In this document: positions 5,228 to 44,972 of the stretch, in pieces
Numbering within the stretch: position 1 is the first letter of the stretch
Layout of the letters: the number at the start of each line of letters is the position of its first letter
Assembly: GCA_964621445.1 (NCBI GenBank)
Contig: CAZUNO010000010.1
Location: forward strand, 1-64,000
Source: Candidatus Hadarchaeota archaeon
GTDB taxonomy: Archaea; CAYQAE01; CAYVLA01
DNA length: 64,000 nucleotides
Direction of reading: 5' to 3'
The notes under the pieces: generated by a model
Databases searched by the model: none
What the model was told of the DNA's origin: nothing
The model's input: only the letters and a program-made list of their open reading frames with translations
Position numbers and translations under genes: made by a program

Positions 5228-6478
5228 GTGTTTTGGAAACAATTTGCTCTACCTCTGCTTATCCTTCTCCTTCTCTCCTTTCATGGCGTTTGTAGGGCGG
5301 AGCAGGAGGGGGATAGAATCAAGGTGTTTCTTATCGGAGAGGTATATCCCCAGGAATGTCCGCTTCCCCTGCTGTTCGATGATGATCCCCTTTATGACTA
5401 TGTGGCAATACGGACACGAGAGGGCCCAGCAGGTAAGCTTACACATGACATGAAAATGAGGTATATTAGGCTCTATTTTCCCAGGAGTGAGGGGGAGTTA
5501 CGGAAGTTTTCGATGATTTTTTTCGTCGATGCCGACGTGTCCATATTCTCGGGAAAACAATCTCAACAGATGTTCGATGCCATAAGTGAGGGGAGTGCTG
5601 GTTCATTTTTCACCTTCGGTCCCGAATTTCCTTCCGTTCAGTCCTCAATTCTGGGAAGGGTTGTACCACATGACATGTCGGTTCCCCTTGACATGGACTG
5701 GACACACCGATCATACAAAGTGAGGTTCGTACGAGGGCTTCCACCAGTGTTCACCCCCTTCATAGAGCTGGGAGTGGAAGGGGCGGTAGGCATAGGATGT
5801 GGTTTCCTGGAACCAAGAACCGGCGCAAAGGCATGGGGCTATCTGGTTCCCGAAAGATATGGTCCCTGGATTCTTGAGTGGAAATATGATGGGAACGGTG
5901 GGAATTGTTGGGTTGTTGCGGATGACCTGGATCATAGCTGGTGGGGCAATATACATGCCAGTATTCACGGGCTATCTGAGAATCCATGGGCAATGGACAT
6001 AATGTCGAACCTGATCCTATATTCCGCCGATAGGGAACTGCCTGAGGACGTGGTTATCGTCTCAAAGGCCAGGGACGGGTTTTGGGAATACAGGACCGAA
6101 AAATCCATAATCCTTTCCCTCATGGATTGGGTGGAGAGATTCGGAGCTAGTACAGATTCGTTTGCCCGGGAACTGGCGGAAACGGATCAGAATTTGGTCA
6201 GGGCCAGCGATCTTTACATAAACGGTGATTATTCCTCGGCCCTAGCTGAACTTGAGGAGGCTAAGGAAAAGGCCCTTGAACTCCGAGATGAGGTGCTCGG
6301 GGCCAAGGACCGGGCCCTGCTCTGGGTTTACGTCATAGAATATCTCACCATTTCGGGAACTGCCGTAATATCTGGGTTTGTAATCTGGACCCTAATGGTG
6401 CGGCGCCGCCTTTACAGATCTGTAGGTAAGACGACCTTCGATTCGAATAGCAAAAATACCGACGAGCTAAAGAGGTAG
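5228..6478 (+). CDS. Surface family A paralog 1 (signal peptide, GATase-like ectodomain, helical stalk, C-terminal TM)
   Basis: IRLYFPRS, ERFGAST, ALLWVYVIEY, WTLMVRRRLY shared with six other ORFs in the window. Confidence 0.85.
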   Translation: MFWKQFALPLLILLLLSFHGVCRAEQEGDRIKVFLIGEVYPQECPLPLLFDDDPLYDYVAIRTREGPAGKLTHDMKMRYIRLYFPRSEGELRKFSMIFFVDADVSIFSGKQSQQMFDAISEGSAGSFFTFGPEFPSVQSSILGRVVPHDMSVPLDMDWTHRSYKVRFVRGLPPVFTPFIELGVEGAVGIGCGFLEPRTGAKAWGYLVPERYGPWILEWKYDGNGGNCWVVADDLDHSWWGNIHASIHGLSENPWAMDIMSNLILYSADRELPEDVVIVSKARDGFWEYRTEKSIILSLMDWVERFGASTDSFARELAETDQNLVRASDLYINGDYSSALAELEEAKEKALELRDEVLGAKDRALLWVYVIEYLTISGTAVISGFVIWTLMVRRRLYRSVGKTTFDSNSKNTDELKR

Positions 6479-7465
6479 CTCAACGGGGCTTTTCTGCCTT
6501 GAAGATTCATATATGGCTAGTGAAAGTTCCAGGGCTTTCCGTCCATCTTCAGCTGAGACCGCAGGCGGATCATCATTAATGACGCTGTTAATGAATTGAT
6601 CTAACTGAACCATGGTGGTATCTACCTTCTCGCTGGAAAACTCCACCCTCTCCCATTCATCATCTTCCTTGTCTCTTACGGCAAGGCCACCATTGGCAAA
6701 TGACAGGGCTCCCTTGGTTCCGTTAAATTCAAACGGTGGAGCGGTCGATCCCTTTATGCCGGTGCTGGCCATTATATTAAGGGTGGCGCCGGATTTGAAT
6801 TTGATTATGCCGGTGGCCGTGTCCTCTACCTCCATGTCGTGGAAAAGATTCTCATAATAGCCGATTACCATTTTTGCCTCGCCCATCCACCAGGAGAGCG
6901 AATCGAGGTGGTGGGTGGCCTGATTCATCAATACGCCCCCTCCCTGGGTTTCCCACTTGGTTTTCCAATCTACCTGGTAGTACTTCTTCGTTCTCCAGGA
7001 CTTGACAACGCTGTTGGCGTAAAGGAGTTTGCCCACTACCTCCTCATCAAGGAGTTCCTTAATCTTCTGGTAAGAGGGCTTCCACCTGTAGTTATAGCCA
7101 ACGTAGATCTTATTTCCGGTTTCCTCTACCCTCTTGACCATCTCATTTGCCTCATCCATGGTGTTGCACATGGGCTTCTCCACCAGAACGTCCAATCCCG
7201 CGTCGAGACAATCCAGCGACATGGGGGCATGGAGATAGTTGGGGGTGGAAATTATGGTTGCATCGAGATCCTCCGCGTCCAGCATGGCCTTATAATCCTT
7301 GTACCATGAATCCGCACCCAATTCCTCAGCGGCTTCCTCTGCCGCTTGCTCCACAATATCGGCTATACTTACCAGTTCACACCTATCGGAATCAACTACG
7401 CGCCTGGCATGGCCGTGGCCACGCCCCAGCCCGATGATGCCTATTCTTATCTTATCCAATATCAA
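6467..7465 (-). CDS. Gfo/Idh/MocA family oxidoreductase
   Basis: IGIIGLG, STPNYLH, VEKP, GGGVLMNQATHHLD. Confidence 0.95.
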   Translation of the reverse strand: MILDKIRIGIIGLGRGHGHARRVVDSDRCELVSIADIVEQAAEEAAEELGADSWYKDYKAMLDAEDLDATIISTPNYLHAPMSLDCLDAGLDVLVEKPMCNTMDEANEMVKRVEETGNKIYVGYNYRWKPSYQKIKELLDEEVVGKLLYANSVVKSWRTKKYYQVDWKTKWETQGGGVLMNQATHHLDSLSWWMGEAKMVIGYYENLFHDMEVEDTATGIIKFKSGATLNIMASTGIKGSTAPPFEFNGTKGALSFANGGLAVRDKEDDEWERVEFSSEKVDTTMVQLDQFINSVINDDPPAVSAEDGRKALELSLAIYESSRQKSPVELPL

Positions 7466-7531
7466 ACTACCTCTACTAGAGTGGACACCATTCGGTCTCC
7501 TGAAAAATATTTGCCATGGTTCAAAACCGGA

Positions 7532-9052: not shown

Positions 9053-9107
9053 TTATTAGGGTAATGAAACCCTTGCCCGGTTGTTCCGCTAGTGTTTATT
9101 AGAGGCC

Positions 9108-11447
9108 ATGGAAACCTTTTCACCCAACTCTTCCTATTTCAAGCAACATGTTTCAGATATCCCGGTCTGGTCGGAATACATGTCATCAATATATGGGCCC
9201 TTTCAAAGTATATGGGTACGAAAAAACATAGTTTCATCCCTGGCCTCCAAAATACTGATCAAAGGTCTTAGGGATAAATTCCCACTGACCCTCCATACCC
9301 AACCGTCCCGAAATGATCTCGTGGTTGATTTTTCCCATGCTGAAGTGGGAGGCCCAGACTCGTTTTCAATAGAGATATCCGGGGATGGCCCTGGCTGCAG
9401 GGCCAGCATCTCGGCCTTCTCCTCAATAGCATTTGTCTACGGTGTCGGAAAATTTCTACGCTCGGTGACAATTACTGAAAAAGGAGTCCTGTTGCCGCGG
9501 ACCTCAATCAAGTTGTCTCCAACCCATCAATGCAGGGGACATGAGGTTTCTACTAGCAGATATCGGGGCGTGTGGAGCGAAGATGATTGGGGAAAATACA
9601 TTGAGCACCTTATTCTCATGGGCTGTAACTGGATTTGGTCGGCCTCCATGGTCGCTTCTCCTCTTGAAGGATGCAGCGAGCGGACGGAAAGGGAATGGGA
9701 GGAGCACCTTCGGGTTCAAAACTTGCAGGCAGAGTTGGCCAATTCCTACGGGGCCAAGTTCGGTATTCATTCATATGCAAATAACATATCTTCGGAGTTA
9801 GTTTCTCCCCAGATAGACAAAGGAGGGGGAAAATTCGTTTGTCCTTCAACTAAACGGGGCAGACGGCTGATTAATGATTCACGGGAGATGCTGTTTAGGA
9901 ACCTCAATAGGGTTGATGCGGTATTCACGGCCTCCCATGACCCTGGGGGCTGTCCCTGTGGGAACTGTACCCCATGGGTGGAGACCTATATCCCTATCAT
10001 GAGGGAGCAAAGCGAGATTCTCAGTGAGTACCACCCGAAGGCTAATTTCTACATATCGAATCAGGGCTTGAGCAAATCAGAGAACAGATGGCTCTTCGAA
10101 TATCTCAAGTCGGATACGCCTTCGTGGCTTGACGGGGTGGTGTGGGGACCCCAGGCGCGTCTCCTTGAGGAACTCAGAAGGGGACTGCCTAGGAGATACG
10201 ATGTTCTGGCCTTTCCGGATATAACCCATCTGATAATTTGTCAATATCCCGTCCGGGGATTTGATCAATCAAATGCACTCATTCACTATCGGGAATCACC
10301 CACCTATAGGCCATGCACCATGCAAAGGATATTCAGGGAGACGAAACGGGCAACGGTGGGTTCCAAGCCCTACTCCGAGGGCCTTCACGATGATCTAAAC
10401 AAGGCCGTGTGGAGCGGACTTCACTGGGGTCAGGACCCAGAGAAGACAGTAGAGGAGTACTGCAGATGGCATTTTGGCGCCGAGGCCGGGAAGATACTTG
10501 CCCGGGCCATATTCAAACTCGAGGAAAATTGGAGCAGGGTCTTGGATCAAAATCCTGAAATTTCTAGGGTCCTTGAAAAGATACGCTCGGTCAGAGGAAT
10601 CGTTCGTCCCGAGTGGGATTTAAACTGGAGGTATCTCATCCTCCTATTCAGAGCGGTGTGTGATGATTATATAAGGAAAAGATCAAGACGTCAAAGCAAT
10701 CTCCAATCAAGAGTTGAAAATGTTCTAGCCGATAGGAAATCTCCACACAGGTCTCGTATTGAAAGAGGATTGGAAATATTGGCAAGGGAGGAGATATCGG
10801 GTCCGGAGCTTAGACTCAAGCACGAACTTGAGTCATATGCAGGTATGCTGGAGAGCAGATTCGGTATTGATCTAACTACGGTCGATAGGTTGGATAGCGA
10901 CCTCGCCAGCATTAATTGGATAAGATCGCTTCTTGAGCGAGCCAGTTCCCTTAACTCGGAATCCTCCCGGGGGAGGGTCATAGATAATATTCTTTCCTAT
11001 GAGGAAACCCAAGATGGCTACTACGATGATTGCGGCAATCCAAGCAAGGAACCGCATCTTATTCGAGGGGAGGATTACTTCATGGAGAATCTGGATGAGG
11101 ACACGCGACTATCCCATCGATGCATGTCATACGGTAGGAGCCAGTGGGATGCGGATGTTGTTTATAGATACGAAGGGCTCGACTCATCATGCTTCCATAG
11201 GGTACAGGTAACCTATGTTACAAACCACAGAATGAAAGGGTCCCAGGTACTAATGGCCAATGGAAGATATGTTCACGGGGACTTGCAGCTCCCGGAAGGA
11301 AAGCCGGTCAGTATATCCTTTAATATTTCTCCTCAGGAGATTCCGGAAGGAAAATTGGAATTGGTATTCAAACGAGGGAGCAACGGTAGGGGCCCTCTTG
11401 TTTCGGAGATAAGGGTTTTGAAGGTTTCGGAAATCGAACGAAAATAA
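9108..11447 (+). CDS. Uncharacterised glycoside hydrolase-like protein with C-terminal beta-sandwich
   Basis: 779 aa. N-terminal accessory-like region (YGVGKFLR), barrel-like core (HDPGG, PDITH, YSEGLHDD) and CBM-like C-terminus. Confidence 0.55.
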   Translation: METFSPNSSYFKQHVSDIPVWSEYMSSIYGPFQSIWVRKNIVSSLASKILIKGLRDKFPLTLHTQPSRNDLVVDFSHAEVGGPDSFSIEISGDGPGCRASISAFSSIAFVYGVGKFLRSVTITEKGVLLPRTSIKLSPTHQCRGHEVSTSRYRGVWSEDDWGKYIEHLILMGCNWIWSASMVASPLEGCSERTEREWEEHLRVQNLQAELANSYGAKFGIHSYANNISSELVSPQIDKGGGKFVCPSTKRGRRLINDSREMLFRNLNRVDAVFTASHDPGGCPCGNCTPWVETYIPIMREQSEILSEYHPKANFYISNQGLSKSENRWLFEYLKSDTPSWLDGVVWGPQARLLEELRRGLPRRYDVLAFPDITHLIICQYPVRGFDQSNALIHYRESPTYRPCTMQRIFRETKRATVGSKPYSEGLHDDLNKAVWSGLHWGQDPEKTVEEYCRWHFGAEAGKILARAIFKLEENWSRVLDQNPEISRVLEKIRSVRGIVRPEWDLNWRYLILLFRAVCDDYIRKRSRRQSNLQSRVENVLADRKSPHRSRIERGLEILAREEISGPELRLKHELESYAGMLESRFGIDLTTVDRLDSDLASINWIRSLLERASSLNSESSRGRVIDNILSYEETQDGYYDDCGNPSKEPHLIRGEDYFMENLDEDTRLSHRCMSYGRSQWDADVVYRYEGLDSSCFHRVQVTYVTNHRMKGSQVLMANGRYVHGDLQLPEGKPVSISFNISPQEIPEGKLELVFKRGSNGRGPLVSEIRVLKVSEIERK

Positions 11448-11721: not shown

Positions 11722-11745
11722 CTGTATATATACCTAAGCCTCGTT

Positions 11746-14394: not shown

Positions 14395-15648
14395 CTAGTT
14401 ATCGGGGACTAGCCTCGTGCTCTTAGTCTCCTTGTATAGTCGGCGTCTTACCATTAGGGTCCATACGGCAAAACCGGATATGAACATGGTGGAGGAGAAA
14501 ACGAGCCACTCGGTGATATAGACCCAGATCAGGGCGGCCTCCTTTTCCTGCCGGGCTACATCCTCGGCCTTGGAAAAGTGTTCGAAACCCTCCCGAAGCA
14601 TGTTTTCGCATTCCACGAAATCTTGTTCAAGGTACTTCCTGGAGGCCTTGGAGTACATATCGCCCAGCTCGATTAATTCCGTATCTATGACCTTGGTGTT
14701 TGCGCCAAATCTGTCGATGAAATCTCTCAGGGAGACGAGCACGGTCATTCGAGATCTGTATTCATGAAAGTTGGACTTGATGCGGTGGAATACCTCAACG
14801 TTTTCTATAAGACCCCTCTGGGAGACCCATAGTAGCATGTTCATAATTATCTCCGGTGCGTACTGGTTCTGTTCGGGTGTGGTCGGATAGCCCAGCCAGC
14901 CATGGGCCATAAACCCGCCGTTGGTTATCGTTCTTCCATCCTCATAGTTCCAGGCCGCCATGGCATCGACCTTGTCGATACCTTGGAAGTTGCCTGCCTG
15001 CCAGGCAAGTAGCATCGAACCCTCCCGGTGGATAACCATCCTTGAGGCGCCAAAACAGTTGACATCCTCCACGCCGAAGGGAATAAACACGGTTAGTATC
15101 GGTTCCGGGCATTCCCGATTTATGATGATCTTAAAGAAGTTCGAGGTGGCCTCCCCGGCTTTCTTGGAGGTAACTGCTGGTGCGTCGTTTGGAAAGGCCT
15201 TTTGAGTCAGGGAGGATGACCATGCCTCTGCTATCCCGGAAACGATCGAGAACACGCTTCCATCATTTATTCCCCCCGTGCCCTGCCGTATCGCGTCATA
15301 CATCCACTGATCCTGCTTGGGGGTAAATACTGGCCAATCGGGGGAGGTCAATATAATGACATCATAGTTCTTCATTCCATCAAAGGTACGGGGAAAGTAG
15401 AGCCTGATCATCTTTGGCAACTCTTTCTCCTTAATATCGGCCGTTTCACGGGCGGGCACGATATCATAATTGACAAGTGGTTCGCCCCCCAATGTCTTTT
15501 CAAGTCCTCCTATGAAGGCCAGGGATCCGACCATCAGTATCGAGATTTTATCCTGGGCTAAACAGGTTCTCGGAGCGATGAATGAGATGAGCAAAAGGGT
15601 GACTAGACAGAAATAGAGGAGTTCCCGCTGCATGACCCGTATTGTCAA
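14395..15648 (-). CDS. Surface family A paralog 2
   Basis: IRLYFPRT, DFIDRFGANT, ALIWVYITEW, WTLMVRRRLY..STRL. Confidence 0.85.
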   Translation of the reverse strand: MTIRVMQRELLYFCLVTLLLISFIAPRTCLAQDKISILMVGSLAFIGGLEKTLGGEPLVNYDIVPARETADIKEKELPKMIRLYFPRTFDGMKNYDVIILTSPDWPVFTPKQDQWMYDAIRQGTGGINDGSVFSIVSGIAEAWSSSLTQKAFPNDAPAVTSKKAGEATSNFFKIIINRECPEPILTVFIPFGVEDVNCFGASRMVIHREGSMLLAWQAGNFQGIDKVDAMAAWNYEDGRTITNGGFMAHGWLGYPTTPEQNQYAPEIIMNMLLWVSQRGLIENVEVFHRIKSNFHEYRSRMTVLVSLRDFIDRFGANTKVIDTELIELGDMYSKASRKYLEQDFVECENMLREGFEHFSKAEDVARQEKEAALIWVYITEWLVFSSTMFISGFAVWTLMVRRRLYKETKSTRLVPDN

Positions 15649-15753: not shown

Positions 15754-16593
15754 ATGGTAATGATTGATAGAAAGGTAGCAGGTATAGCGATAATATCGGT
15801 GACGCTGTCCGGTCTCCTGGTTTTTTCCTTCGCGGAGGAGGCCAGCGAGGATCCAGTTGAGATCCTTACCAATGAGTACCCGGGTATCCTTCCTTCCGGT
15901 GAATCGACCATAGCGATATCAATGGCTGCTAGACACTCAATCGAGCGCCTCGATATCAAATCAAAAATGCTTACCTCAAGTAGTCTTAGCTTGGATGAAC
16001 TTATAGATCCCTATATGGAGTTCAACCAGTCGAACACCCCCTATGATGTTTTTGGAAACGTTAAGAGATTGGAATGGTACCGTGAAGAATTAAATGATTT
16101 GGGGATTGAGCCGAGGACGATCAATTCCACTCTAAATATAGAGGGATCCGAATTCCAGATGGCATGTATTGATTATACGGATGTTATTAGATATCTCCTG
16201 GGTGTGGAGGCTATGGAAAACATACCGCTTGCCTATGCGGTTGCCATGAATGGAACTGGCGACTATATCTGGTTAGAGGGAGGGAATGAATTTTTCGTTC
16301 GTCCTACCACAAATATAAAGAGGTTGACATATTCCAATAATGAGAACCAAACCACCTACGTTCCGGATGACCAGCTATGGGAGGGCTCGGACCAGCTGCC
16401 CATTTCGGAGGCACCACGTGGTCTGCTAAGCTTTAATTCTTTGGATAAGGATGACACCATCAATATAATAACCACCTTTGAGGGTAGATCAGTTCCAAGC
16501 GACCCTAAGAGTCCAATAGCAATACTCCAGATAATCGATATCTACGTTGATGGGGAAGTGCAGGATCCAATAATCAATCTAATTCGAAAGTGA
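15754..16593 (+). CDS. Surface family B protein (N-terminal anchor, beta-rich), copy 1
   Basis: Homologous by eye to 44920..45771: AARHSIERLDI vs VARKPIERLEI, EAPRGLLSFNSLDKDD vs KAPPVGELIFDGLEKED. Confidence 0.8.
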   Translation: MVMIDRKVAGIAIISVTLSGLLVFSFAEEASEDPVEILTNEYPGILPSGESTIAISMAARHSIERLDIKSKMLTSSSLSLDELIDPYMEFNQSNTPYDVFGNVKRLEWYREELNDLGIEPRTINSTLNIEGSEFQMACIDYTDVIRYLLGVEAMENIPLAYAVAMNGTGDYIWLEGGNEFFVRPTTNIKRLTYSNNENQTTYVPDDQLWEGSDQLPISEAPRGLLSFNSLDKDDTINIITTFEGRSVPSDPKSPIAILQIIDIYVDGEVQDPIINLIRK

Positions 16594-16603: not shown

Positions 16604-17557
16604 ATCAGGATACCAATAATAGCCACCGTTTGCTTGTTAATGATCTGCACCGTGTATTCAGCAGACCTTAACCCCAAGATCGTGGTCTATGGTGGTACAA
16701 ACCAGGAATTCGCGGAAATGCTGGCCTCCGTGATAAATAATGATACCAGGATAGAGGCCGAAACCCTGGTCGCCTCAACCCCTAAGGGAGTGAGCCTTGC
16801 TACTGCCCTGCCAAACCTGAGGTGCATAGTGATTTTTTCGGATAATGCCAAGGATCTCTCCGGTTTTAAAAGTTCCCTGATACCTTTTTTTGAGGAAGGG
16901 GGAGGGCTGGTTGGAATTAAGGAGATCTGCTACATCCCTTCGGCCGAGGAACTAGCAAAAAGTGTGTTCCCCATTTACGGAAATGCCACCGAGAAGGAGT
17001 TGAGTCCCAGGAAGACCAGAACCAGAACCTATGTGGTTGAAGAAGAAACCGAAATCACCGAAAACCTGCCGGATAACTTCGAGATTCTCAGCATGGGAAC
17101 CTACTACTCGGCCAATGAGGAGGGGGAGTATGTTGAGATTGGGGGAAGTAAGACCGTTGTGTATAGGGACGGAGAAGTTGGATGTCCATTGGTGGTAACC
17201 AACCAGAGCGAGAAAGGGGGGAGGTCCGTATCGCTTCCGGGAATCATGGTGGTTTCGGTTCCCAGAGTGGATGTGTACTATGGCAATATTGTGCAGGACG
17301 AGGAGTTTGTTACCCTGTTCACAAATTCGGTTTTGTGGGCTTCGGGAAATGCCAGGTCCCAGTATATGGAGTCGGATCTTTCCCAGAGGATAGAGGATGC
17401 TGATAACAGGTATGAGGAGCTTAAGAAAGCTGCGAGTGAGTCGGAAAAGGAACGCAACCAGAGCCGACTAACCATGCTCCTTCTGGTATGGGCATTAGGG
17501 ATAGCCTTTTGTGGCGTTGTGGCCTGGAAGATCATATTGCCTAGTCCAGGCGAATAA
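16604..17557 (+). CDS. Surface family C protein (GATase/ThuA-like ectodomain, coiled coil, C-terminal TM), copy 1
   Basis: FFEEGGGLVG and EEFVTLFTNSVLWA; homologous to 45764..46765. A complete signal peptide requires ATC 16604; the track start is 16634. Confidence 0.8.
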   Translation: MRIPIIATVCLLMICTVYSADLNPKIVVYGGTNQEFAEMLASVINNDTRIEAETLVASTPKGVSLATALPNLRCIVIFSDNAKDLSGFKSSLIPFFEEGGGLVGIKEICYIPSAEELAKSVFPIYGNATEKELSPRKTRTRTYVVEEETEITENLPDNFEILSMGTYYSANEEGEYVEIGGSKTVVYRDGEVGCPLVVTNQSEKGGRSVSLPGIMVVSVPRVDVYYGNIVQDEEFVTLFTNSVLWASGNARSQYMESDLSQRIEDADNRYEELKKAASESEKERNQSRLTMLLLVWALGIAFCGVVAWKIILPSPGE

Positions 17558-20921: not shown

Positions 20922-22154
20922 CTAATCCAACCTGGTAGTGGTAACTTCCCTGTAAAGACGTCTGCGAACCATCAATGTCCATAACAAAAAGCCGCATATG
21001 AGGGAGGCACCGGTCACGGCCAGCCATTCAGATACGTATATCCATAGCAGGGCGGAGTCCTTGACCTCCTGTGCCAGGTTCTCTGCTTCCTCCATCATCC
21101 CCAGGGCTCTATCAATAGCTTCAAGCGCCCCGGAAAAATCCTGCTGGAGATAAAGGTCCCTGGCCTTTTCCGCGACCCGGTCTACTTCCTCCACCTTTTT
21201 CAAAACCCGGGAAGGGTCAGCACCGAAATTATCAACGAAATCAACGAGAGAGGTTATGATGAGCTTACGGTTACTAAAGGAAGTTATTCTGGACCTCACG
21301 GTATGTACCAGGTCCAGGTCCTTGGGTATATCATTGCCGGTACAGTACAACATGAGGTTGGTTACGAAGTCCTGGATATAATCCCATTCTAGAAATCTGG
21401 CCCCCCCGCCCGGGGTCCAATCCCCGGTCATGGCGAAGACCCTTCCGCTATCGTTGAAGTTCCAGGTGGAGAAGAAGGGGTTTTTCCAGTTGAGATACTT
21501 GCGTTCGTATACCAGCTCCTGAGTAACCGTAGCGACGGCCAAGACCTCAGCCCCTGGTTTCTCCTCTACCATATTGGAGGCATATCTCTGTAGGAAGTTG
21601 AGGTCAGGTCTCCAGGGTAGGCTTCGCATGAATGGGTTCTCGCTATCCAATATCTTCAATTTGCCGCCCTCATATCCCCCGTATACCGTCTTCACGGGAA
21701 GAACCTGCCCTACCGGGGTTTGGCCCCAGTCTGGATGGTGCCCGTTAGTCCCATAGGTTTCATGGCCCCCGATCATGACCAGGGCCAAGGCCTGGTTGGA
21801 AACTCCCCTTTTGAACCATTCCAGATGATCATCGGTGAAGCTGGCCACATTGGCATCGCTTACGATGACCACATCGTATTGATCCAGGAGTGAACTGTAA
21901 CTGCGGGGCATGTACAACCGTATCGCCCGTTCGATCTCGGAGCTGGAATATATTCCCCATAGATAATCCTTGGATGCTTGTATCGGGGTGGTAATAAGCA
22001 TGGGCTCGGATTTCATGTAGATGTAGGGGGTCTCGCCAGGGTAAGGATCTCCAGTATAAAGAACATTAACCCGGGTGCCTTGACCCAGTACCGAGATGGT
22101 ACCTGGAATGGTCAGTAAAAGGACTACCAAGGGAATTAACCTGTGAATAAGCAT
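20922..22154 (-). CDS. Surface family A paralog 3 (clearest DUF1355/GATase1-like signature)
   Basis: YDVVIVSD, LVMIGGHETYG, WGQTPVGQVLPV; IRLYMPRS, DNFGADP, WTLMVRRRLYREVTTTRL. Confidence 0.85.
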   Translation of the reverse strand: MLIHRLIPLVVLLLTIPGTISVLGQGTRVNVLYTGDPYPGETPYIYMKSEPMLITTPIQASKDYLWGIYSSSEIERAIRLYMPRSYSSLLDQYDVVIVSDANVASFTDDHLEWFKRGVSNQALALVMIGGHETYGTNGHHPDWGQTPVGQVLPVKTVYGGYEGGKLKILDSENPFMRSLPWRPDLNFLQRYASNMVEEKPGAEVLAVATVTQELVYERKYLNWKNPFFSTWNFNDSGRVFAMTGDWTPGGGARFLEWDYIQDFVTNLMLYCTGNDIPKDLDLVHTVRSRITSFSNRKLIITSLVDFVDNFGADPSRVLKKVEEVDRVAEKARDLYLQQDFSGALEAIDRALGMMEEAENLAQEVKDSALLWIYVSEWLAVTGASLICGFLLWTLMVRRRLYREVTTTRLD

Positions 22155-28299: not shown

Positions 28300-28425
28300 C
28301 TACTCGCCTCTTTTCTCCGGTGATCTACTACTACCTGGCGGGTGAAACCTTGAAAAATGACACCACCAATCTTTGAATTGGTCAAAGAATTAAATCATCC
28401 CACCCAAACAAGGAGGGGTAAGATA

Positions 28426-29130
28426 TTGACTGAGCTCCTATACTTCCATGATTGCTATCTCTCAGAATTCAAGGCTAGTGTAGAAGGTAAGTCGTCCAGA
28501 GGAATAGTTTTGGATAGAACGGCCTTTTACCCTGCTGGTGGGGGACAGCCCTGTGATACCGGGATAATGAATACCTCAGAGAGGAGCTACACCGTTGAGA
28601 AGGTGAAGAAACAGGGCTCTGACGTGGTCCACATCCTATCCGGTTCCGGACCCGAAGTGGGGGAATCAGTCCAGTGTAGGCTGGACTGGGAAAGAAGATA
28701 TTCCCATATGAAATATCACACGGCGCAACATCTGCTATCGGCGTATTTTCTTTCGAAGCACGGGGCTGGGACAGTAGGTAATAGTAGACATGACCAGGGG
28801 GCAACTATAGATTTTGCAGTGACCAAGCTTCAGGATTCGGAGATCAAAGCTGTGGAGGACCGGATAAATATCTGGATAGAGGAGGCAAATCCAGTGGAGA
28901 TATTCATGTTGCCTCGAGAAGATGCCCTGGATAGATTGGACCCCAGGAGAACGAGAATAGAATTGCTCCCGAAATCCGTACGCAGTTTAAGGATTGTCAG
29001 AATAGCCGATATTGACGAAGTTGCCTGTGCAGGTACCCATGTTAGAAACACACGGGAGCTGGGTTGTTTTAATATAGAGAAGTTTGGGCAGCGGAGAAAT
29101 GGACTAAGAGTAGAGTTTACCCTGGCCTGA
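28426..29130 (+). CDS. alaX: Alanyl-tRNA editing protein AlaX
   Basis: DRTAFYPAGGGQPCDTG, HTAQH, CAGTH; TTG start after GGAGGGG. Confidence 0.9.
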   Translation: MTELLYFHDCYLSEFKASVEGKSSRGIVLDRTAFYPAGGGQPCDTGIMNTSERSYTVEKVKKQGSDVVHILSGSGPEVGESVQCRLDWERRYSHMKYHTAQHLLSAYFLSKHGAGTVGNSRHDQGATIDFAVTKLQDSEIKAVEDRINIWIEEANPVEIFMLPREDALDRLDPRRTRIELLPKSVRSLRIVRIADIDEVACAGTHVRNTRELGCFNIEKFGQRRNGLRVEFTLA

Positions 29131-32432: not shown

Positions 32433-32434
32433 AC

Positions 32435-33685: not shown

Positions 33686-34942
33686 CTAGGATAGCCGCGT
33701 CACGTCGACCTCGCGATACACGCTTCTTCGTACCATCAGGTTCCAGATCACCACTCCGCATATGAGGAAGGTTCCGCTGACGGTCAACCATTCTATGAAG
33801 TAGACCCAAGCGAGAGCCGAATTCTTGAGATCCAACAGGTCGTCCTCTAGATCCCAAAGGCCATCTAGAATGACATCCATCCTTCCATATGAGTCATCGA
33901 AATCCCCGTTTAGATACTCATTATCGGCTTTACTCTTCTTTTCCTCGATTTCTCCGAGATGGGAATAGATTTCAACCGTGTTGGCTCCGAATTTTTCCGT
34001 GAATTCGGCCATGGAGTACATTGAGGACTTGTCTATTTGGTATTGACGAAATAGAGTTCGTAGGGCATGAACCCTAAGGGCATCCTCTGGAAGTTCCCGG
34101 TTGGTTGCGTGCCAGACCACATTGGCGATTATGTCCATTGAATAGGGGTTTCTATCCATCCTCCAGAAAGGTTCGATTACCATGTCCATGGCGGTAAAGG
34201 TAGTTGCATTCTCATAGTTCCATTCGAATAGATGTGCTACATAGCCTGGGAATGGATTACCAACGCTTTTCAACTTACTTTTAACCCAGGTGTGTATGGT
34301 TGACCCTGGACGGGGGATGGTCAGAACGCCCCTGTAGGTGGTAAATTCCTCCTCAATGTATTCCTGAAAAGGCCTAACGACTGCGGGGAGGCTTTGTTCG
34401 TCATTAACTATCAGGGGACCGGTGGGGAAGGACATCCCTCCTGCTTGATAGATGGAACTACCGACCACGGCCGGAACATCATTGGGAAATACTTTGGAAA
34501 CCATGCTGTTCAGCCAGGGCCCTGACCAGGCCGTACTCATGCTCTGGACGCTCCTGGTGTTCATGCCCCCCAATCCCTCCTTGGCAATCGCGTCGTGCAT
34601 CCATTTTACCTGCTTGTTGGTAAAAAAAGTCATATCTATTGAGGCCAGGAGGACGAAGTCGTAATTCTTCATTTCATCATAGGTTCTGGGGAAGTAAATT
34701 CGTATCATCTGAGTGACTTCGGACCCGCTTACCCCTCCAAAATCTCTGGCAGGGATGACCATGCCGCCGAATGAAGGCTCACTAAGCAGCCATCCTCTGA
34801 TAACGCCCATCCGAGATTCTCCCGCTTTACAGGTAGCAATCAATTTAGCTGGTTCTGAGGAGTTCCCCCCCACAGCCGAAGGTAGAATGAGCGCGAAAAT
34901 TATGGTAATCATGATAAAGATTAGGATAGGACGGAGATTCAA
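33686..34942 (-). CDS. Surface family A paralog 5
   Basis: IRIYFPRT, EKFGANT, ALAWVYFIEW, WNLMVRRSVYREVDVTRL. Confidence 0.85.
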   Translation of the reverse strand: MNLRPILIFIMITIIFALILPSAVGGNSSEPAKLIATCKAGESRMGVIRGWLLSEPSFGGMVIPARDFGGVSGSEVTQMIRIYFPRTYDEMKNYDFVLLASIDMTFFTNKQVKWMHDAIAKEGLGGMNTRSVQSMSTAWSGPWLNSMVSKVFPNDVPAVVGSSIYQAGGMSFPTGPLIVNDEQSLPAVVRPFQEYIEEEFTTYRGVLTIPRPGSTIHTWVKSKLKSVGNPFPGYVAHLFEWNYENATTFTAMDMVIEPFWRMDRNPYSMDIIANVVWHATNRELPEDALRVHALRTLFRQYQIDKSSMYSMAEFTEKFGANTVEIYSHLGEIEEKKSKADNEYLNGDFDDSYGRMDVILDGLWDLEDDLLDLKNSALAWVYFIEWLTVSGTFLICGVVIWNLMVRRSVYREVDVTRLS

Positions 34943-35036: not shown

Positions 35037-36533
35037 GTGGTAAATGGGGTTCTTATATCCTTGACCAACCTGCTGTTCATTTTTACCGACGAGCAAAAAG
35101 CGGCAACGATGTCAGCCTACGGTAATAATAGAATAGATATGCCGAACCTAAACCGGCTATCCACCCAGAGCTGCGTGTTCGATAGGGCCTATGTTACCCA
35201 ACCCGTTTGTACGCCATCCAGATCATCCTTGCTTACCGGGCAATATCCACATACAAATGGCTGCACCGGAAACAATGTTCCACTTTCACCTGAGGCCAAG
35301 TGTTTTCCCGAGATGTTGCATAAGGGACGATATGCTACCGGTTATGTTGGTAAGTGGCATTTGGGGGACGAGATATTTCCTCAGCATGGTTTTGAGGAAT
35401 GGATCAGCATAGAGGACCTCTACCGTAGATACTATCGACCCCATCGAGACCAGGATGCTCGCTCCACATATCACCATTTCCTGGCGAGAAACGGATTTAC
35501 CCCCGGGAATGATAACCTATTTGGCAGGGGTGAGTGTGCCAGACTCCCGGAGAACTACACCAAGGCTGCCTATACGGCGGGGGAGGCTTGCAGTTTCCTT
35601 GATGGCCATCGGGAAGAGGATTTTGTTCTTTTCGTCAATTTTCTAGAGCCGCATATGCCGTTTTTTGGGCCGCGTGATGGTCAATATGAATCGAACGAGG
35701 TCACATTGCCGCCAAACTTCGGTTCGCCACCGGCCCAAAACCAGCCATTTAAGACCAGGATATTTTATGATGCCTACCGCAAGTACGGCCACGGGGGGTT
35801 TTCTCTTCGAACGGAGTCCGATTGGAGGAATATCATATCCAATTATTGGGGTCTATGCAGTCTGGTGGATACACAGCTGGGGAAAATTCTGGACGCGCTT
35901 GATAGAAATGGAATTGCTGGCGATACCATAGTTGTCTTCACCTCCGATCACGGTGACATGATGGGTAGCCACCGACTGCTCACCAAATGTGTGATGTTTG
36001 AGGAGGCCCTTCGGGTTCCCATGATGATAAGATTACCTGGACAGCAAGAATCATACAGAATAACGGAACCCACATCCCAAATCGATCTATTACCTACCCT
36101 TCTAGACTTGATGAATGAGGGAATACCCTCCAATCTTGAGGGAAGAAGCCTGAAGCCCCTACTAATGGGTGAAGAGAAGGAGAGCAAGGGGGAGGTATTC
36201 GTCGAATGGAACGGGCGCCATGAGGGGGAAAGTTGGAAGCAACGGGTGGTTGGTCAGGAAAGCGTGAAATTGCCTCCGGGTTATGATGAACAGGAGGCGT
36301 TAAGGGCCATTTCTGATGATGTAAGGACGGTAATAACTAATGATGGGTGGAAGTTTAATTGTTCAAGTTTTGGGGAACATGAACTCTACGATTTGAAATC
36401 CGATCCCTACGAGACCCAAAACCTGGCAGGAAAGAAGAAGAACGAGTTTCTCATGAACCAACTACTGGAGAGGATCAATTGCTGGCAAAAGGATACAGAT
36501 GACGCAATATCGCTTCCCCGTAAAATAGGTTAG
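35037..36533 (+). CDS. Cys-type sulfatase
   Basis: CTPSRSSLLTG, GKWHL, SDHG. Confidence 0.95.
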   Translation: MVNGVLISLTNLLFIFTDEQKAATMSAYGNNRIDMPNLNRLSTQSCVFDRAYVTQPVCTPSRSSLLTGQYPHTNGCTGNNVPLSPEAKCFPEMLHKGRYATGYVGKWHLGDEIFPQHGFEEWISIEDLYRRYYRPHRDQDARSTYHHFLARNGFTPGNDNLFGRGECARLPENYTKAAYTAGEACSFLDGHREEDFVLFVNFLEPHMPFFGPRDGQYESNEVTLPPNFGSPPAQNQPFKTRIFYDAYRKYGHGGFSLRTESDWRNIISNYWGLCSLVDTQLGKILDALDRNGIAGDTIVVFTSDHGDMMGSHRLLTKCVMFEEALRVPMMIRLPGQQESYRITEPTSQIDLLPTLLDLMNEGIPSNLEGRSLKPLLMGEEKESKGEVFVEWNGRHEGESWKQRVVGQESVKLPPGYDEQEALRAISDDVRTVITNDGWKFNCSSFGEHELYDLKSDPYETQNLAGKKKNEFLMNQLLERINCWQKDTDDAISLPRKIG

Positions 36534-38631: not shown

Positions 38632-38632
38632 A

Positions 38633-39679: not shown

Positions 39680-39707
39680 GGGAAACCACGGGGTGAAATG
39701 CAAAGAT

Positions 39708-40274: not shown

Positions 40275-40403
40275 GATTTAAGGTATTCTATGGACATATA
40301 AAGAGTCACAGACGGTAGATAAATTGACCCTTTTCAGCATTCACTAGCTCAAATTGCAAAAGCTTATGCATGATGAGGTATAATGATATCTTGAGGTGAT
40401 TTT

Positions 40404-40664: not shown

Positions 40665-40721
40665 AATCATCAATTAGAATTCAGGTCCCCGGTCCATGGG
40701 CATGTAGGAATATTCGATTTC

Positions 40722-42377
40722 CTAATTAATAACTGGAAGAACTAACTGACTTGGATAATTAACATTATGGTGAATAAAGTTACTTGAGGGAATTCTATTA
40801 GGATAAAAATTGGGAAAGTCGCTATTGCCAATATCCACCCTAATCCTTGAGCCGGCGTGGAAAACCTTCCAGATGGGCATCATTTCAATTTTAAAATTGT
40901 AGATCTTTCCGGATATTAGTTCATGGGGTTCTCTGTGGGACTGAAAGTGGGACCCTCTAAGCGCTCCACTTGTAAATACGGTGGATTTCCCTCCCGGCCT
41001 AACCTCCGTTAGTTTTGCTATCCAGTCCACGTCCCCTGAATCGGTCGATGCAAATAGATTAAGAATTGGAGGACCTGCAATTTCCAGTCCCTTTTCGAGT
41101 TTCCCGGTTGTATAGCTTAACATCAGCTTCTCGGCCTCACTAATGTCTCCCTTCCTCTGAGAAATTGTGGGAATGGGATTATCGGGGTCATGGTTGATAG
41201 GATCGGGCTCTTGCCCTCTCGGGGCCTTACAGACCAGAATGCCCTCATTATCCTTGTGCACTCCCTGTTTCTTCACATGGGAAAGGAAGTACCTCTTTTC
41301 CCGGGTCTTTGGTGGCCATGTTGACTGGAAAATCCACTTATCTCTTCCCAATACGTAGGCCCTGATCGGCGGTTCATCCATTATGCCGTTTTCACGCCCC
41401 TTGAGCCAGTAATCGAACCATCTAAGCTGGGTTCCTGTCATATCAAATCCTTCCCTTCCGGCATGGAACCATGGACCTATTATCAGCTTTTTCGGGGCAT
41501 TTATCTCCGTGTAACTCCTGATGGTGCCCCGGATGAAGAAGTCGAACCACCCGCCATAGCAGTATATAGGGGTGCTGATCTTTTCAAAAATGGAGCCCGG
41601 CGATTGAGCCTCCCAGAACTGACCATAGGTTTCGTTTTCCATCCACTGGTGTAGAAAATCAATGTCATAGAGGCCGCGCCCTTTCGACACACTTTCCACA
41701 GCTATCCGGGCCCTGGCATGGTTTATTCTCCTCATCATACCAAGTATTTCTTCTTCCTTCTCCTCCTGGAATCGGAGCAAACCGGGCACGTTTGGCGGTG
41801 TTATATGGGCTAGGTGAATTATGGACCACCTAATCATGAGCATATTCAGAATACCACCGGGATAGACGGCCTCGTGATAGATATCAGCCCCCGCGTATCC
41901 GACGAACATGGCCTTTAGCCCAGGTGGATGCTCTGCCGCCAGGAAAAGCTGGTCCATCCCCAGGTAGGAATTGCCCACGGTGCCTATCTTCCCGTTGGAC
42001 CACGGTTGGGCTCGAATCCAGCGTATTGTGTCATATCCATCGGGGCCATCATTGACCAGAAATCTAAACTTCCCTTCGGATATACCTGTACCTCTTACCT
42101 CGGCCTCGACCACGGCATATCCTCGCCTGACGAATTCCTCGTGTGAGTGCTTATCCCGCGAATTAGGTGGTATGGAAACGTCATGGTATGGGTTACGTAT
42201 AAGAATTGTAGGAAAAGGCCCTTCTGAATCCGGGCGAAACACTTCAACATAGAGCCTAATGCCGTCCCTCATGGGTATGTAGGTTCTATCAACCTCTCTG
42301 GGCTGGTGGAGAGCAATTCCCCACGATGGATCGATCTCCTTTAAGGCCATTCTCAGCATCTTCCTGATTCGAATCAT
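40722..42377 (-). CDS. CocE/NonD family hydrolase
   Basis: MRDGIRL, RNPY, VRGTG.SEG, GNSYLG, GWFD, GPWFH. Confidence 0.92.
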   Translation of the reverse strand: MIRIRKMLRMALKEIDPSWGIALHQPREVDRTYIPMRDGIRLYVEVFRPDSEGPFPTILIRNPYHDVSIPPNSRDKHSHEEFVRRGYAVVEAEVRGTGISEGKFRFLVNDGPDGYDTIRWIRAQPWSNGKIGTVGNSYLGMDQLFLAAEHPPGLKAMFVGYAGADIYHEAVYPGGILNMLMIRWSIIHLAHITPPNVPGLLRFQEEKEEEILGMMRRINHARARIAVESVSKGRGLYDIDFLHQWMENETYGQFWEAQSPGSIFEKISTPIYCYGGWFDFFIRGTIRSYTEINAPKKLIIGPWFHAGREGFDMTGTQLRWFDYWLKGRENGIMDEPPIRAYVLGRDKWIFQSTWPPKTREKRYFLSHVKKQGVHKDNEGILVCKAPRGQEPDPINHDPDNPIPTISQRKGDISEAEKLMLSYTTGKLEKGLEIAGPPILNLFASTDSGDVDWIAKLTEVRPGGKSTVFTSGALRGSHFQSHREPHELISGKIYNFKIEMMPIWKVFHAGSRIRVDIGNSDFPNFYPNRIPSSNFIHHNVNYPSQLVLPVIN

Positions 42378-42423
42378 TCATCCTGTTTCTCGATATTGCT
42401 TTCGATTTGGATTAAAATAATGG

Positions 42424-43662
42424 TCAGTTTTCGATCTCAGATAATCTTGTAGTATTGATCTCTCTATAGTACCTCCTCTTGATCATCAGGGTCCAGATCA
42501 CGAATCCGCTTAGCATCGCCGTTCCCGACACTATGAGATACTCCGTAATGTAGATCCAGAACAGTGCCCTTTGTCTCAGTCGCATTGACTCCGAAGAAAT
42601 ACTAGCGAGTCCATCCAAAGCTTCCTGCATCTGGTCCAGGGCTTCCTGATAATTGCCCTTCATATACGATTGGCTTGCCTCCTTCCTCTGTGCCTCGAGC
42701 TCGTCGAGAAGCGTATTAAGGGAGGCGGTGTTGGCCCCGAACCTATCGATGAAGTCTATGAGGGATATCATCATGCCCTTTCGCTCATAGAATGCCTTGA
42801 AGTTCGCCCGGAGGGTGTGTCCAAGTTCCAGGTCCTCGGGCACTGGTACGCCTGCTGGAAAGTATATCCTGTTCAGTACCATGTCAACGTGGTATTTCCA
42901 ATCCCTTATCGCTGGGTTTTGAAACATGAAGTCCATAATGGGCAGGCATAAGGTGATCCCCTCTCCATAATTGGTGGACACGATAGCGTCCTCGCCACCA
43001 ACCCTCCATTTGGCGTGAACCGTTGCCCCTGGTCGCGCATATATTAGGCCGGGGCCGGCGTTTCCCGTAAAACCTATTGGCTGCTTCTCGAAATCCGGCA
43101 GGTCAACTACGGGGGTCCTGGTTACTATTTCCAATCCGACTCCCGGCTTTGATGACTCCCCAATGACAACGTTCATGGGCCAAGCATCATAGATTACGGA
43201 GTTCATCCAATCCTGGGGTCGATTGCAGTATAGCATAGGATCAGTTAAACACGGTTGCCAGCCCATATGAATTAGGACCAGGCCCACGCCATCCTCGTAA
43301 ATTGAGTCATGGATCCACTGCTGTTGCTCACCTGTAAAGACCCATGGCGGGGAAAACATCAGCTGTAGTACATCGACCTCAGAGGAGAAGCGGGCCTTGG
43401 TCCTGGGAAATTTTATCCGCAAACGTTTGCGGACCTCATCGGCAGGTAATCCATTGGCCGTCTCTATGCTGGAAAGGAGGAATATTCTTGGATCGGACCT
43501 TAGCAGCCCTAACGGGTATCTATTCACGTCCTGCCATTGATTTCCTACGGCTATGAGCCTGATCCTACCGGTTGAAGGATCCGTTTTTGCCGTGGAAACG
43601 CTCAGCATTAGGATCATCAAAGCCAATATTAGAAGGGTTAGCAGGCATTGATTTCTCTTCAT
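42424..43662 (-). CDS. Surface family A paralog 6
   Basis: LRIKFPRT, DFIDRFGANT, ALFWIYITEY, WTLMIKRRYYREINTTRL. Confidence 0.85.
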   Translation of the reverse strand: MKRNQCLLTLLILALMILMLSVSTAKTDPSTGRIRLIAVGNQWQDVNRYPLGLLRSDPRIFLLSSIETANGLPADEVRKRLRIKFPRTKARFSSEVDVLQLMFSPPWVFTGEQQQWIHDSIYEDGVGLVLIHMGWQPCLTDPMLYCNRPQDWMNSVIYDAWPMNVVIGESSKPGVGLEIVTRTPVVDLPDFEKQPIGFTGNAGPGLIYARPGATVHAKWRVGGEDAIVSTNYGEGITLCLPIMDFMFQNPAIRDWKYHVDMVLNRIYFPAGVPVPEDLELGHTLRANFKAFYERKGMMISLIDFIDRFGANTASLNTLLDELEAQRKEASQSYMKGNYQEALDQMQEALDGLASISSESMRLRQRALFWIYITEYLIVSGTAMLSGFVIWTLMIKRRYYREINTTRLSEIEN

Positions 43663-43688
43663 CTCTTTCTCAGCTCTCGGTCCTTGGC

Positions 43689-44972
43689 TTAGTTTTCGAT
43701 TTTTGTTTCAAGTCTTGTAGTAACTATCTCTGAGTAGAGTTTCCTTTTCACCATTAGTGACCAGATGATTACTCCACTGATAATTGAAATCGCGGTGACC
43801 GTCATCCATTCCGTTATATAGACCCAGCGCAAGGCCCTTTTCCTAAGCCTTGCGGAATCTTGAGAGAGTTCCGTTAACCCCTCTATAGCTTCCCTGATTG
43901 ATTCAATTGACTTCTGATACTCGCCGGACAGATAATAATTACTAGCAGTCCCTCTTTTGGCGTCCAAATTATCTATCTTGGTGTGAAGAGGGCCCGTATT
44001 GGCACCAAATTTGTCTATGAAATCAATTAATGATAGCATAAGGGCTTTCTGTTCACCATACTGGGTAAATGCAGATCTTAGAGCATTTGCAAGTTCAGGG
44101 TCCTCCGGGACAGGAACCTGGGATGTATAGTAGATGCTATTGATAACAAAATCAGCGAAATATTTCCAACCCCTCACCATTTTGGAGGAGACACAGTCCC
44201 ATCCCGCAGGAAGTGCCAATGTTCTACCCTCACCATAATCAGTTGAAACGATGGCATCCTGCTTTCCGTTCTTCCACCTGGCGTGCAGGACCGCCCCCGG
44301 CCGTGCCTCGACCACACCGAGGTTTCCCGGAGGACCACCGTAGGGCTGGCGTTCGAAACCTGGAAGACCAACCACCGGGGTTTCCTGGACTATTTCCACG
44401 TAGAGGGGGTTTTTAACCGTCTTCTCAAGTATAACGTCAATGGGCCAAGCATCATATATTGGCGATTTCATCCAGTCCCATGGACAATTACATGCCTCTA
44501 TGATATTGCAGCTATGATACCCCATTTCAACTAGGACAAGCCCCAGTCCCGAATCATATATTGCGTCATGTATCCACATCTGTTGGAAATCGGTGAAAAT
44601 CCCAGGCCGGGCGTCGAGGTACTTTATGGAGTCTATCGACTCAATCATTCTTTTTTCCGTGCGTGGAAATATGGTGCGAACGTATCTCCTGGCTTCATCC
44701 GGGGGTGCACTCACACCAGATCTAATGGTGCCAAAGTGGTGGATCCTGGGATCGGATTGAATCACACTCATCACATACTTGTTCTGCCCGTTCTGCTCTC
44801 CAACCACTAGAATGCGAATTCTGCCGGTATTGGGATCGACCTTCGGCCCAGCTAGAGCCGGATGAATAAGGATTAGGAGACAGAGGATTACCATAGAAGA
44901 TGATTTGACATGTGTAATCTTAGACTCCCTCCGATGACAGGAAACTGGGTAATGAAGTTTGATACTCTCCAT
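43689..44972 (-). CDS. Surface family A paralog 7 (tandem duplicate of paralog 6)
   Basis: VRTIFPRT, DFIDKFGANT, WSLMVKRKLY..TTRL; true start probably 44918 (ATT) or 44894. Confidence 0.85.
   Translation of the reverse strand: MESIKLHYPVSCHRRESKITHVKSSSMVILCLLILIHPALAGPKVDPNTGRIRILVVGEQNGQNKYVMSVIQSDPRIHHFGTIRSGVSAPPDEARRYVRTIFPRTEKRMIESIDSIKYLDARPGIFTDFQQMWIHDAIYDSGLGLVLVEMGYHSCNIIEACNCPWDWMKSPIYDAWPIDVILEKTVKNPLYVEIVQETPVVGLPGFERQPYGGPPGNLGVVEARPGAVLHARWKNGKQDAIVSTDYGEGRTLALPAGWDCVSSKMVRGWKYFADFVINSIYYTSQVPVPEDPELANALRSAFTQYGEQKALMLSLIDFIDKFGANTGPLHTKIDNLDAKRGTASNYYLSGEYQKSIESIREAIEGLTELSQDSARLRKRALRWVYITEWMTVTAISIISGVIIWSLMVKRKLYSEIVTTRLETKIEN

Follow-up and report, generated by a model that had tools for sequence, protein, structure and literature searches.

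The 64,000-nucleotide stretch analysed here (the window; positions 1 to 64,000 of contig CAZUNO010000010.1 from a Candidatus Hadarchaeota archaeon) carries seven dispersed copies of a gene for a membrane protein with a class-I glutamine amidotransferase (GATase1)-like head, a helical stalk and a conserved membrane anchor. A check of the open reading frames (ORFs) recovered all seven, at 410–427 amino acids. Copy 1 (5228–6478, plus strand, 416 amino acids) has the full layout of signal peptide, GATase1-like head, three-helix stalk, transmembrane (TM) helix and basic tail. Copy 2 (14395–15648, minus strand, 417 amino acids) is divergent from a pair of genes belonging to two other multi-copy families, here called clusters 6 and 12; copy 3 (20922–22154, minus strand, 410 amino acids) is the only one of the seven with a Pfam PF07090 match; and copy 4 (22313–23584, plus strand, 423 amino acids), the copy that we modelled, has orthologues of up to 76% identity. 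Copy 5 (33686–34942, minus strand, 418 amino acids) is divergent from a sulfatase gene at 35037–36533. Copy 6 (42424–43662, minus strand, 412 amino acids) stands in tandem with copy 7 (43689–44972, minus strand, 427 amino acids as an ORF, with a likely start Met at 44894), which lies 3′ of a cluster-12 and a cluster-6 gene on the same strand; copies 6 and 7 are each other's nearest paralogue (47% identity).

The seven proteins align end to end, with 25–32% identity to copy 1, and share 27 invariant columns that include the motifs RxYFPR, F..FGA, AL.W.Y..E and W.LM..R..Y..T, bearing out the initial annotation of this DNA, which had grouped them as one family with a shared layout. The signal peptide that it had given to each copy is likewise seen: all seven window copies begin with a hydrophobic, signal-like segment and then small residues, and the same holds before the mature part of 113 of the 116 intact copies (those not at contig ends) across the genome. 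Copy 1 matches the family profile with an E value of 1.0e-155 and has orthologues of 71–73% identity in two other genera. Given 150 scored matches in their own genome, we judge the family membership of the seven to be far beyond chance.

The description as a seven-copy family falls well short of the true number. The genome of the window comprises 3.21 Mb in 89 contigs and is 96% complete; counting copies in it by hidden Markov model, run with a profile of the seven copies, gave 176 candidates, of which 150 were scored. In an ORF scan, the same profile found 166 ORFs, which span 176,601 nucleotides (5.5% of the genome). With a minimum length of 380 amino acids, 117 of these remain (median 417), so that there are about 117 intact copies and about 49 fragments. 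All-against-all clustering makes this the largest family of the genome (146 of 2,920 greedy gene calls, fragments included), ahead of sulfatases (45), ATP-binding cassette (ABC) ATPases (41), URO-D-like proteins (40) and Gfo/Idh/MocA oxidoreductases (32). In-frame stops interrupt 11 of the 150 scored matches. Some copies are interrupted by TAG, and since a search found no PylS over the cut-off, a pyrrolysine reading was set aside and these copies were treated as broken.

The family is restricted to one lineage. The GTDB family to which the genome belongs contains three further genomes, with 126, 154 and 240 candidates; outside it, 37 archaeal genomes were sampled, among them the only other one of the class, and none gave a match at E ≤ 1e-10. 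When one genome per GTDB species was scanned for the pattern, 126 relatives emerged, and the top 80 of these all lie in three metagenome-assembled genomes titled 'uncultured Thermococci archaeon' or 'Candidatus Hadarchaeota archaeon'; two public homologues carry the name 'Theionarchaea archaeon'. Among 1.84 billion representative proteins, 946, 481 and 292 match at E ≤ 1e-3, 1e-10 and 1e-30, respectively. The great majority of the best 150 public matches are about 380–470 amino acids long, and around two dozen are pieces of 199–354 amino acids that cover part of the profile; these counts and lengths indicate a family that is narrow in range and uniform in architecture. Its DNA is found in runs labelled as microbial-mat and hypersaline-lake metagenomes, and no RNA runs carrying window positions 40722–46765 were listed.

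The structure of the protein was examined on copy 4, in which the signal peptide occupies residues 1–26 (22313–22390), the head residues 27–285 (22391–23167), the stalk helices residues 286–372 (23168–23428) and the juxtamembrane motif, TM helix and tail residues 373–423 (23429–23581). An AlphaFold2 model built on a 76-row alignment (predicted local distance difference test score (pLDDT) 94.4, predicted template modelling score 0.87) shows an N-terminal helix, corresponding to the signal peptide, and then an α/β domain (residues 27–285) and helices at 289–318, 324–345 and 349–414, the last of which continues through the membrane. In a structure search of the model, the stalk matches antiparallel three-helix bundles; the helical stalk and the strongly conserved TM helix and tail of the initial annotation are thus evident in both model and alignments.

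The closest structural relatives of the head are the solved proteins of PF07090 (GATase1_like, formerly DUF1355). The head matches 2gk3 with a VIA-align Z of 21.6 and a root mean squared deviation of 2.4 over 207 residues (Foldseek E 8.9e-9) and 3rht with a Z of 20.7, the PF07090 alignments covering 207–214 residues. ThuA-like proteins follow at Z 14–17 (1t0b, 16.8), and the non-catalytic GATase1-like domains of GH42, Agd3, NDST1, IFT52 and OST48/Wbp1 at Z 11–15. An hmmsearch of the family profile against PDB sequences found 2gk3 (E 3e-8, query residues 27–273), 3soz (8.1e-8) and 3rht (0.0028). The initial annotation had recognized a GATase1-like signature in copy 3. That copy does give a PF07090 hit (E 5.3e-6), but the profile matches and the copy 4 model together show that the whole family, and not copy 3 alone, has this fold. 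Pfam scarcely sees it: PF07090 scores at all in one of the seven window copies and in one of 76 aligned members, and the copy 3 score of 26.6 bits lies just under the gathering score of 27 bits, which none of these members reaches. An NCBIfam scan of the seven copies gave nothing significant. For a homologue, P0049, the ESM Atlas returned unnamed archaeal clusters, some with PF07090, and a lead with a score of 0.83 to DUF4350/IFT52_GIFT proteins.

The Cys-His-Glu triad of class-I glutamine amidotransferases is not conserved in the head. Whether 7, 76 or 116 sequences are aligned, no head column that is invariant or at least 80% conserved holds Cys, His or Glu, in line with the earlier remark that copy 3 shows no obvious triad. 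Every head has a catalytically dead GATase1-like fold of the PF07090/ThuA/GIFT type. Neither an S-layer nor an ABC substrate-binding family was matched by any of the seven copies in Pfam or NCBIfam at E ≤ 1, and no S-layer or substrate-binding protein is among the structural matches listed for copy 4. The mean net charge is −14 for the ectodomain and +3.9 for the last 22 residues; together with the signal-like N terminus, this is consistent with a type I orientation in which the head faces outwards. The heads contain Trp at 2.2 times the proteome level. The family thus consists of type I membrane proteins with a dead GATase1-like head, a helical stalk and a conserved TM helix and tail. A homodimer prediction for copy 4 (two copies of residues 27–423), run without controls, scored 0.00 and speaks neither for nor against a dimer.

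Conservation is far from uniform along the protein. Pairwise identity averaged over the 116 intact copies rises from 24% in the head to 35% in the stalk plus TM helix and 48% in the TM helix plus tail. The best-conserved columns lie on either side of the membrane: A, L, W, Y, E and W at its outer boundary, and G, W, M, R, Y and T at the inner one and in the tail. Comparison with 50 orthologues fetched from two other genera, which define 31 orthogroups, changes the meaning of this gradient. Head identity is 62% within orthogroups versus 25% between them, stalk identity 48% versus 27%, and TM and tail identity 62% versus 49%; the orthologues of copy 4 share 81% identity in the head, 62% in the stalk and 89% in the TM helix and tail. 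The picture of a variable head on an invariant stalk must therefore be amended: the TM helix and tail are indeed strongly conserved, but the extracellular stalk is the least constrained region and the heads are conserved between orthologues. Comparing rates of nonsynonymous and synonymous change (dN/dS) leads to the same view, because synonymous change (dS) is saturated even between the closest paralogue pairs and head dN/dS, where it can be calculated, is 0.05–0.27, a sign of purifying selection and not of hypervariability.

Several evolutionary routes to this pattern were rejected. Synonymous codons are scrambled at the conserved TM and tail positions, which shows that this region is kept at the protein level and rules out DNA-level homogenization or cassette switching of a constant 3′ end. 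The only sign of partial conversion in the family is a pair on contig C38 (2109–3365 and 10634–11920), with a dS of 0.25–0.32 in the stalk and in the TM and tail region versus 1.47 in the head, which may reflect local gene conversion. Recent tandem duplication does not account for the clustering of copies, because the 17 adjacent intact pairs are no more alike than random pairs (median identity 27.5%, against 25.8% for all pairs) and only 2 consist of nearest paralogues. Hypervariability of the antigenic-variation type is excluded by the conservation of heads between orthologues and the low dN/dS. The C-terminal module was found on no other head in this genome, and none of 250 public candidates is a longer protein carrying it, although the latter is weak evidence; the contrast between head and module is differential divergence within one family, not domain shuffling. 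As read from these sequence comparisons, the family is a long-standing set of different heads that has stayed stable on a shared membrane module, and not a hypervariable coat.

A further signal in the ectodomains is the strong depletion of N-glycosylation sequons, a new finding of this analysis. The motif N-x(not P)-S/T occurs 21 times in the 116 ectodomains, against 152.8 ± 11.0 expected from composition-preserving shuffles, and the reverse motif, used as a control, occurs 137 times. No sequon at all is present in 95 of the 116 copies, and 13 of the 25 sequons in the whole aligned sequences share a single alignment position. The same holds for family ectodomains in two other genera (7 sequons against 27.2 ± 5.3 expected, with 25 reverse motifs, in the first, and 7 against 35.8 ± 5.3, with 29, in the second). 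By comparison, 230 other putative secreted proteins of this genome, recognized by a signal-like N terminus, are enriched in sequons 2.13-fold (1,082 against 508.8 expected); only 1 of the 86 with at least 350 amino acids lacks them. The ratio for 600 proteins without hydrophobic segments is 0.92, and cluster-6 and cluster-12 proteins are enriched 2.48-fold and 1.75-fold. The genome contains two AglB/STT3 genes, both on contig C32. A depletion so far below the cytoplasmic level requires selection; it is evidence that the head meets the glycosylation machinery, and it shows glycans there to be harmful. The cause of harm may be self-avoidance by a glycan-binding protein, the need for bare partner or packing surfaces, or closeness to AglB.

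Family copies are spread across most contigs and frequently stand in twos or threes. Of the non-family genes within two genes of a copy, 23.8% belong to multi-copy families, versus 16.9 ± 1.7% at random, a value reached in none of 1,000 samples. The neighbour families include sulfatases, URO-D-like proteins, Gfo/Idh/MocA oxidoreductases, fucose-isomerase-like proteins, DegT-type aminotransferases and S15 peptidases. The enrichment in expanded families is about 1.4-fold by the unbiased measure and 2-fold with a post hoc list of 'catabolic' clusters.

The clearest genomic partner of the family is cluster 6, an unnamed family of about 280 amino acids with 16 copies in the genome, 9 of which adjoin a family copy and 10 of which pair with cluster 12. 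The cluster-6 gene at 44920–45846 (minus strand, likely start 45771) encodes an N-terminal membrane helix and a β-rich, sequon-rich ectodomain, and a second lies at 15754–16593 (plus strand). The cluster-6 model (pLDDT 86.7) has no convincing PDB match, its similarity to two-domain adhesins and archaellins being of low template modelling score. Cluster 12 has 10 copies and is remotely homologous to the family head (hhalign probability 95%, E 4.1e-8); its window genes lie at 45764–46765 (minus strand), whose product has a coiled coil of its own and a C-terminal TM helix, and at 16634–17557 (plus strand). Cluster-12 proteins thus resemble the family in their distantly homologous GATase1-like head, coiled coil and C-terminal TM helix, and differ from it in their length of about 320 amino acids, another stalk and TM helix, sequon enrichment and constant pairing with cluster 6. 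The order cluster 12, cluster 6, copy 7 recurs in two other genomes (loci L034 and L055). In the window it forms part of a packed minus-strand run (40722–46765) of cluster 12, cluster 6, copy 7, copy 6 and, 3′ of copy 6, an S15 X-Pro dipeptidyl-peptidase gene (40722–42377), which looks like one operon; given the start at 45771, the cluster-12 and cluster-6 genes overlap by 8 nucleotides.

On this basis we tentatively favour, at somewhat less than even confidence, a set of surface receptors that bind ligands, probably glycans, without acting as enzymes and that share one docking module. Each protein has a cleaved signal peptide, an acidic, Trp-rich ectodomain of about 260 residues, a three-helix bundle, one TM helix and a basic cytoplasmic tail of about 20 residues. 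Each paralogue would hold its own, evolutionarily fixed specificity, the ligands most plausibly being glycans or oligosaccharides consumed by the large cytoplasmic sugar and sulfatase machinery of the cell. The juxtamembrane, TM and tail module would couple all members to one membrane or cytoplasmic partner, or to an insertion or sorting step, and the ectodomain would work only if free of N-glycans. We infer binding in place of catalysis, the nature of the ligands and a common partner indirectly, from the protein-level conservation of the TM helix and tail, the sequon purge, the Trp-rich heads and the gene neighbourhoods; the weaker hints of glycans come from head Trp, the multi-copy neighbours and their sugar-enzyme families, and the occurrence of the same fold in carbohydrate enzymes.

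A number of observations weigh against this receptor model. Neither a ligand nor a pocket nor a partner was identified in this analysis, and the nearest structural relatives (2gk3, 3soz, 3rht and ThuA-like proteins) are themselves uncharacterized. Trp-richness and the sequon purge would fit other readings too, among them tight packing and docking onto a partner. A set of 107 homologues taken from elsewhere, most of them copy 4 orthologues, has 61 sequons against 136.6 expected, but the reverse motif is also low, at 71, so that this set speaks neither for nor against the purge. A single helix–helix interface might have given one-face periodicity of conservation on the membrane helix, but the periodicity seen is not significant (a fraction of 0.08 of shuffles reach it). 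The 'catabolic' cluster list was picked after the enriched clusters were known and is therefore biased, leaving the 'any multi-copy family' measure as the only unbiased one, and the enrichment of sulfatases as neighbours is modest (16 observed against 8.5 expected). Most family copies stand alone, and the synteny kept between genera includes housekeeping genes, so that it reflects relatedness and not operons. No upstream motif is shared by 115 upstream regions of family copies when set against 2,714 controls, although AT-rich hexamers near −30 are modestly enriched.

A stronger form of the receptor model, which we regard as possible but doubtful, is a recognition system of more than 100 glycan-free, lectin-like members, built from a dead amidotransferase fold with fixed specificities, in which one module connects to a shared transducer or uptake machine. 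Its logic would be that of multi-chain immune receptors or of nutrient-receptor arrays of the SusD/TonB type. If it were true, the sequon purge would be a genomic signature for finding such receptors elsewhere.

Other readings of the same data are less probable. The proteins could be structural parts of the envelope, membrane-anchored pillars or a mixed coat in the manner of SlaB or tetrabrachion stalk proteins, that set the width of a pseudo-periplasm or carry an outer layer and avoid sequons through tight packing of the heads. The order of head, helical stalk and C-terminal TM anchor, the huge gene dosage (5.5% of the genome), an acidic surface as expected in a hypersaline habitat and a purge that suits tightly packed surfaces are all in keeping with such a role. 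We nevertheless consider it unlikely, because it leaves about 117 old paralogues, with their own heads under purifying selection across genera, unexplained; moreover, the stalk is an intramolecular three-helix bundle and not a long coiled coil, and no S-layer family was matched in Pfam or NCBIfam.

A role as accessory subunits or adaptors of a membrane machine, as for the GIFT-domain proteins OST48/Wbp1 or GldG with its ABC transporter, seems to us quite unlikely. The partner would be AglB, with sequons avoided beside the glycosylating enzyme, or a transporter to which lipid-linked or free glycans are handed over. The model resembles human OST48 (6s7o_G, Z 12.6 over model residues 28–347), IFT52 (Z 12.9) and chain B of 6c26, from the yeast oligosaccharyltransferase complex (Z 11.1), which we take to be Wbp1. 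The topology resembles that of OST48/Wbp1, with a signal peptide, a luminal or outer GATase-like domain, one C-terminal TM helix and a short tail, and the presence of two AglB genes and the sequon purge would fit. PMC7226087 proposes that the GIFT domain of Wbp1 binds sugar or lipid-linked oligosaccharide. OST48/Wbp1 and the bacterial GldG offer a possible parallel of a non-catalytic GIFT domain outside the membrane with a C-terminal TM helix, a short tail and a proposed sugar role. The OST48/Wbp1 match is, however, far weaker than those to PF07090 and ThuA (Z 11–13 versus 17–22), which shows a shared fold only. OST48 also carries another domain in the lumen and is encoded once, as a subunit of one defined complex. 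A single machine has no need of over 100 distinct subunits. Cluster 2, the 41 copies of ABC ATPase genes, does not appear among the 14 clusters most often found beside the family. Neither AglB gene on contig C32 is adjacent to a family copy, the nearest being about 13 kb off, and the data examined here contain no link of the family to AglB or to an ABC transporter.

The tripartite C terminus, in which the AL.W.Y..EW motif precedes a hydrophobic helix and RRR, could also be a new sorting signal that is cut off by an archaeosortase, leaving a lipid-anchored mature protein. Two archaeosortase-family genes without a named NCBIfam subtype are present (the L160/L161 pair, at C19:27284–28000 and C2:79898–80566), the one on contig C19 adjoins a broken family copy, and its orthologues occur in all three of three family-bearing genomes and not in the one class relative without the family. 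The C19 gene also adjoins a gene for a CehA/McbA-like metallohydrolase, and the C2 gene one for a GT4 glycosyltransferase. Known archaeosortase and exosortase sorting signals end at the basic cluster and are shared by otherwise unrelated proteins. Here, another 9–24 residues follow the Arg cluster in 15 listed copies; Tyr and Thr in the tail are 91% and 93% conserved, and the module is never found on unrelated proteins. No NCBIfam CTERM model is matched beyond a weak PVV-CTERM hit in one of seven copies (E 0.046, 13.5 versus 27 bits), the C19 adjacency is missing from two further genomes that were examined and the co-occurrence rests on four related genomes; we hold this origin of the C terminus to be very improbable. 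The least credible reading is that the proteins are real enzymes with a non-canonical active site, acting, for example, on extracellular glycans as ThuA-like proteins may, since for all the enzymatic origin of the fold, the conserved head Arg, Tyr, Asp and Trp (R..R.YFPR, W, D) and the sugar-catabolic genes nearby, no nucleophile, His or Glu is invariant, the nucleophile-elbow position appears Gly-rich (as read from the alignment) and the few residues conserved across all paralogues look structural.

The head shares both fold and detectable sequence homology with the PF07090 proteins STM3548 (2gk3), STM1381 (3soz) and 3rht from Planctomyces limnophilus, but these are stand-alone proteins of about 250 residues labelled as cytoplasmic. 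In the present family, none of the 76 members scanned reaches the Pfam threshold; a signal peptide precedes the head, a three-helix stalk and a conserved TM helix and tail follow it, and the expansion within one genome exceeds 100-fold. ThuA-like proteins (1t0b, 4e5v and 4jqs), the middle domain of GH42 (5xb7/4oif), Agd3 (6nwz) and NDST1 (9f6z) have the same fold at Z 13–17 and provide a link to carbohydrate metabolism; PMC7229062 describes this fold as non-catalytic in many carbohydrate enzymes and notes the same structural neighbours for the N-terminal domain of Agd3. They occur as soluble proteins or as domains within larger ones, with neither a membrane anchor nor a multi-copy expansion, and have no detectable sequence relation to our family. 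A looser analogy, which would concern logic only, is with the SusD-like and TonB-dependent receptor arrays of Bacteroidota: these, too, would comprise around a hundred old, diverged paralogues with glycan genes in their surroundings and a constant partner element, but their folds and envelopes are unrelated, and the present family lacks strict operons with transporters or enzymes.

That the initial annotation did not recognize a described system is in line with our literature searches. Searches on PF07090, DUF1355 and GATase1-like proteins returned no description of the family and nothing on archaea, and a search on Theionarchaea gave no description of it either, passages of PMC9258230 making no mention of it. 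The fold is already known, but its use in a membrane-anchored, massively expanded, glycan-free family is new. This analysis contributes the full number of copies, the contrast between orthologues and paralogues, the purge of sequons and the connection with clusters 6 and 12. About 1 gene in 25 (117 of about 2,920) in this genome, and in three known relatives, belongs to a family that no database names, and the largest investment of these genomes is functionally blank. With more than 100 old paralogues that conserve their own heads on a constant module, and a seven-fold sequon depletion set against a two-fold enrichment in the secretome, the family is a natural experiment. If the heads bind substrates, it would represent a new archaeal route to nutrient capture or sensing in glycan-rich hypersaline mats, and a new use of the GATase1/GIFT fold, the eukaryotic members of which, OST48 and IFT52, are also non-catalytic.

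The catabolic setting of the family can be read in part from the window. In the products of its three sulfatase genes (35037–36533, 57693–58997 and 59552–60898), the Pfam domain starts at residues 6–11, which leaves probably no room for a signal peptide; this suggests that sulfated sugars would be imported and then desulfated in the cytoplasm, and that degradation would be intracellular and dependent on surface capture and uptake. The catabolic make-up of the genome is reminiscent of Planctomycetota and Kiritimatiellota, and among its further expansions are 17 xylose-isomerase-like TIM barrels. Another of the four S15 peptidase genes of the genome adjoins two family copies, on contig C12. A 779-amino-acid ORF at 9108–11447, with no Pfam match, belongs to cluster 15, which has seven copies, four of them no more than three genes away from a copy of the GATase1-like family. 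Two genes for AlaX-like (tRNA_SAD) editing domains, at 28357–29130 and 47947–48708, together make up a two-member cluster.

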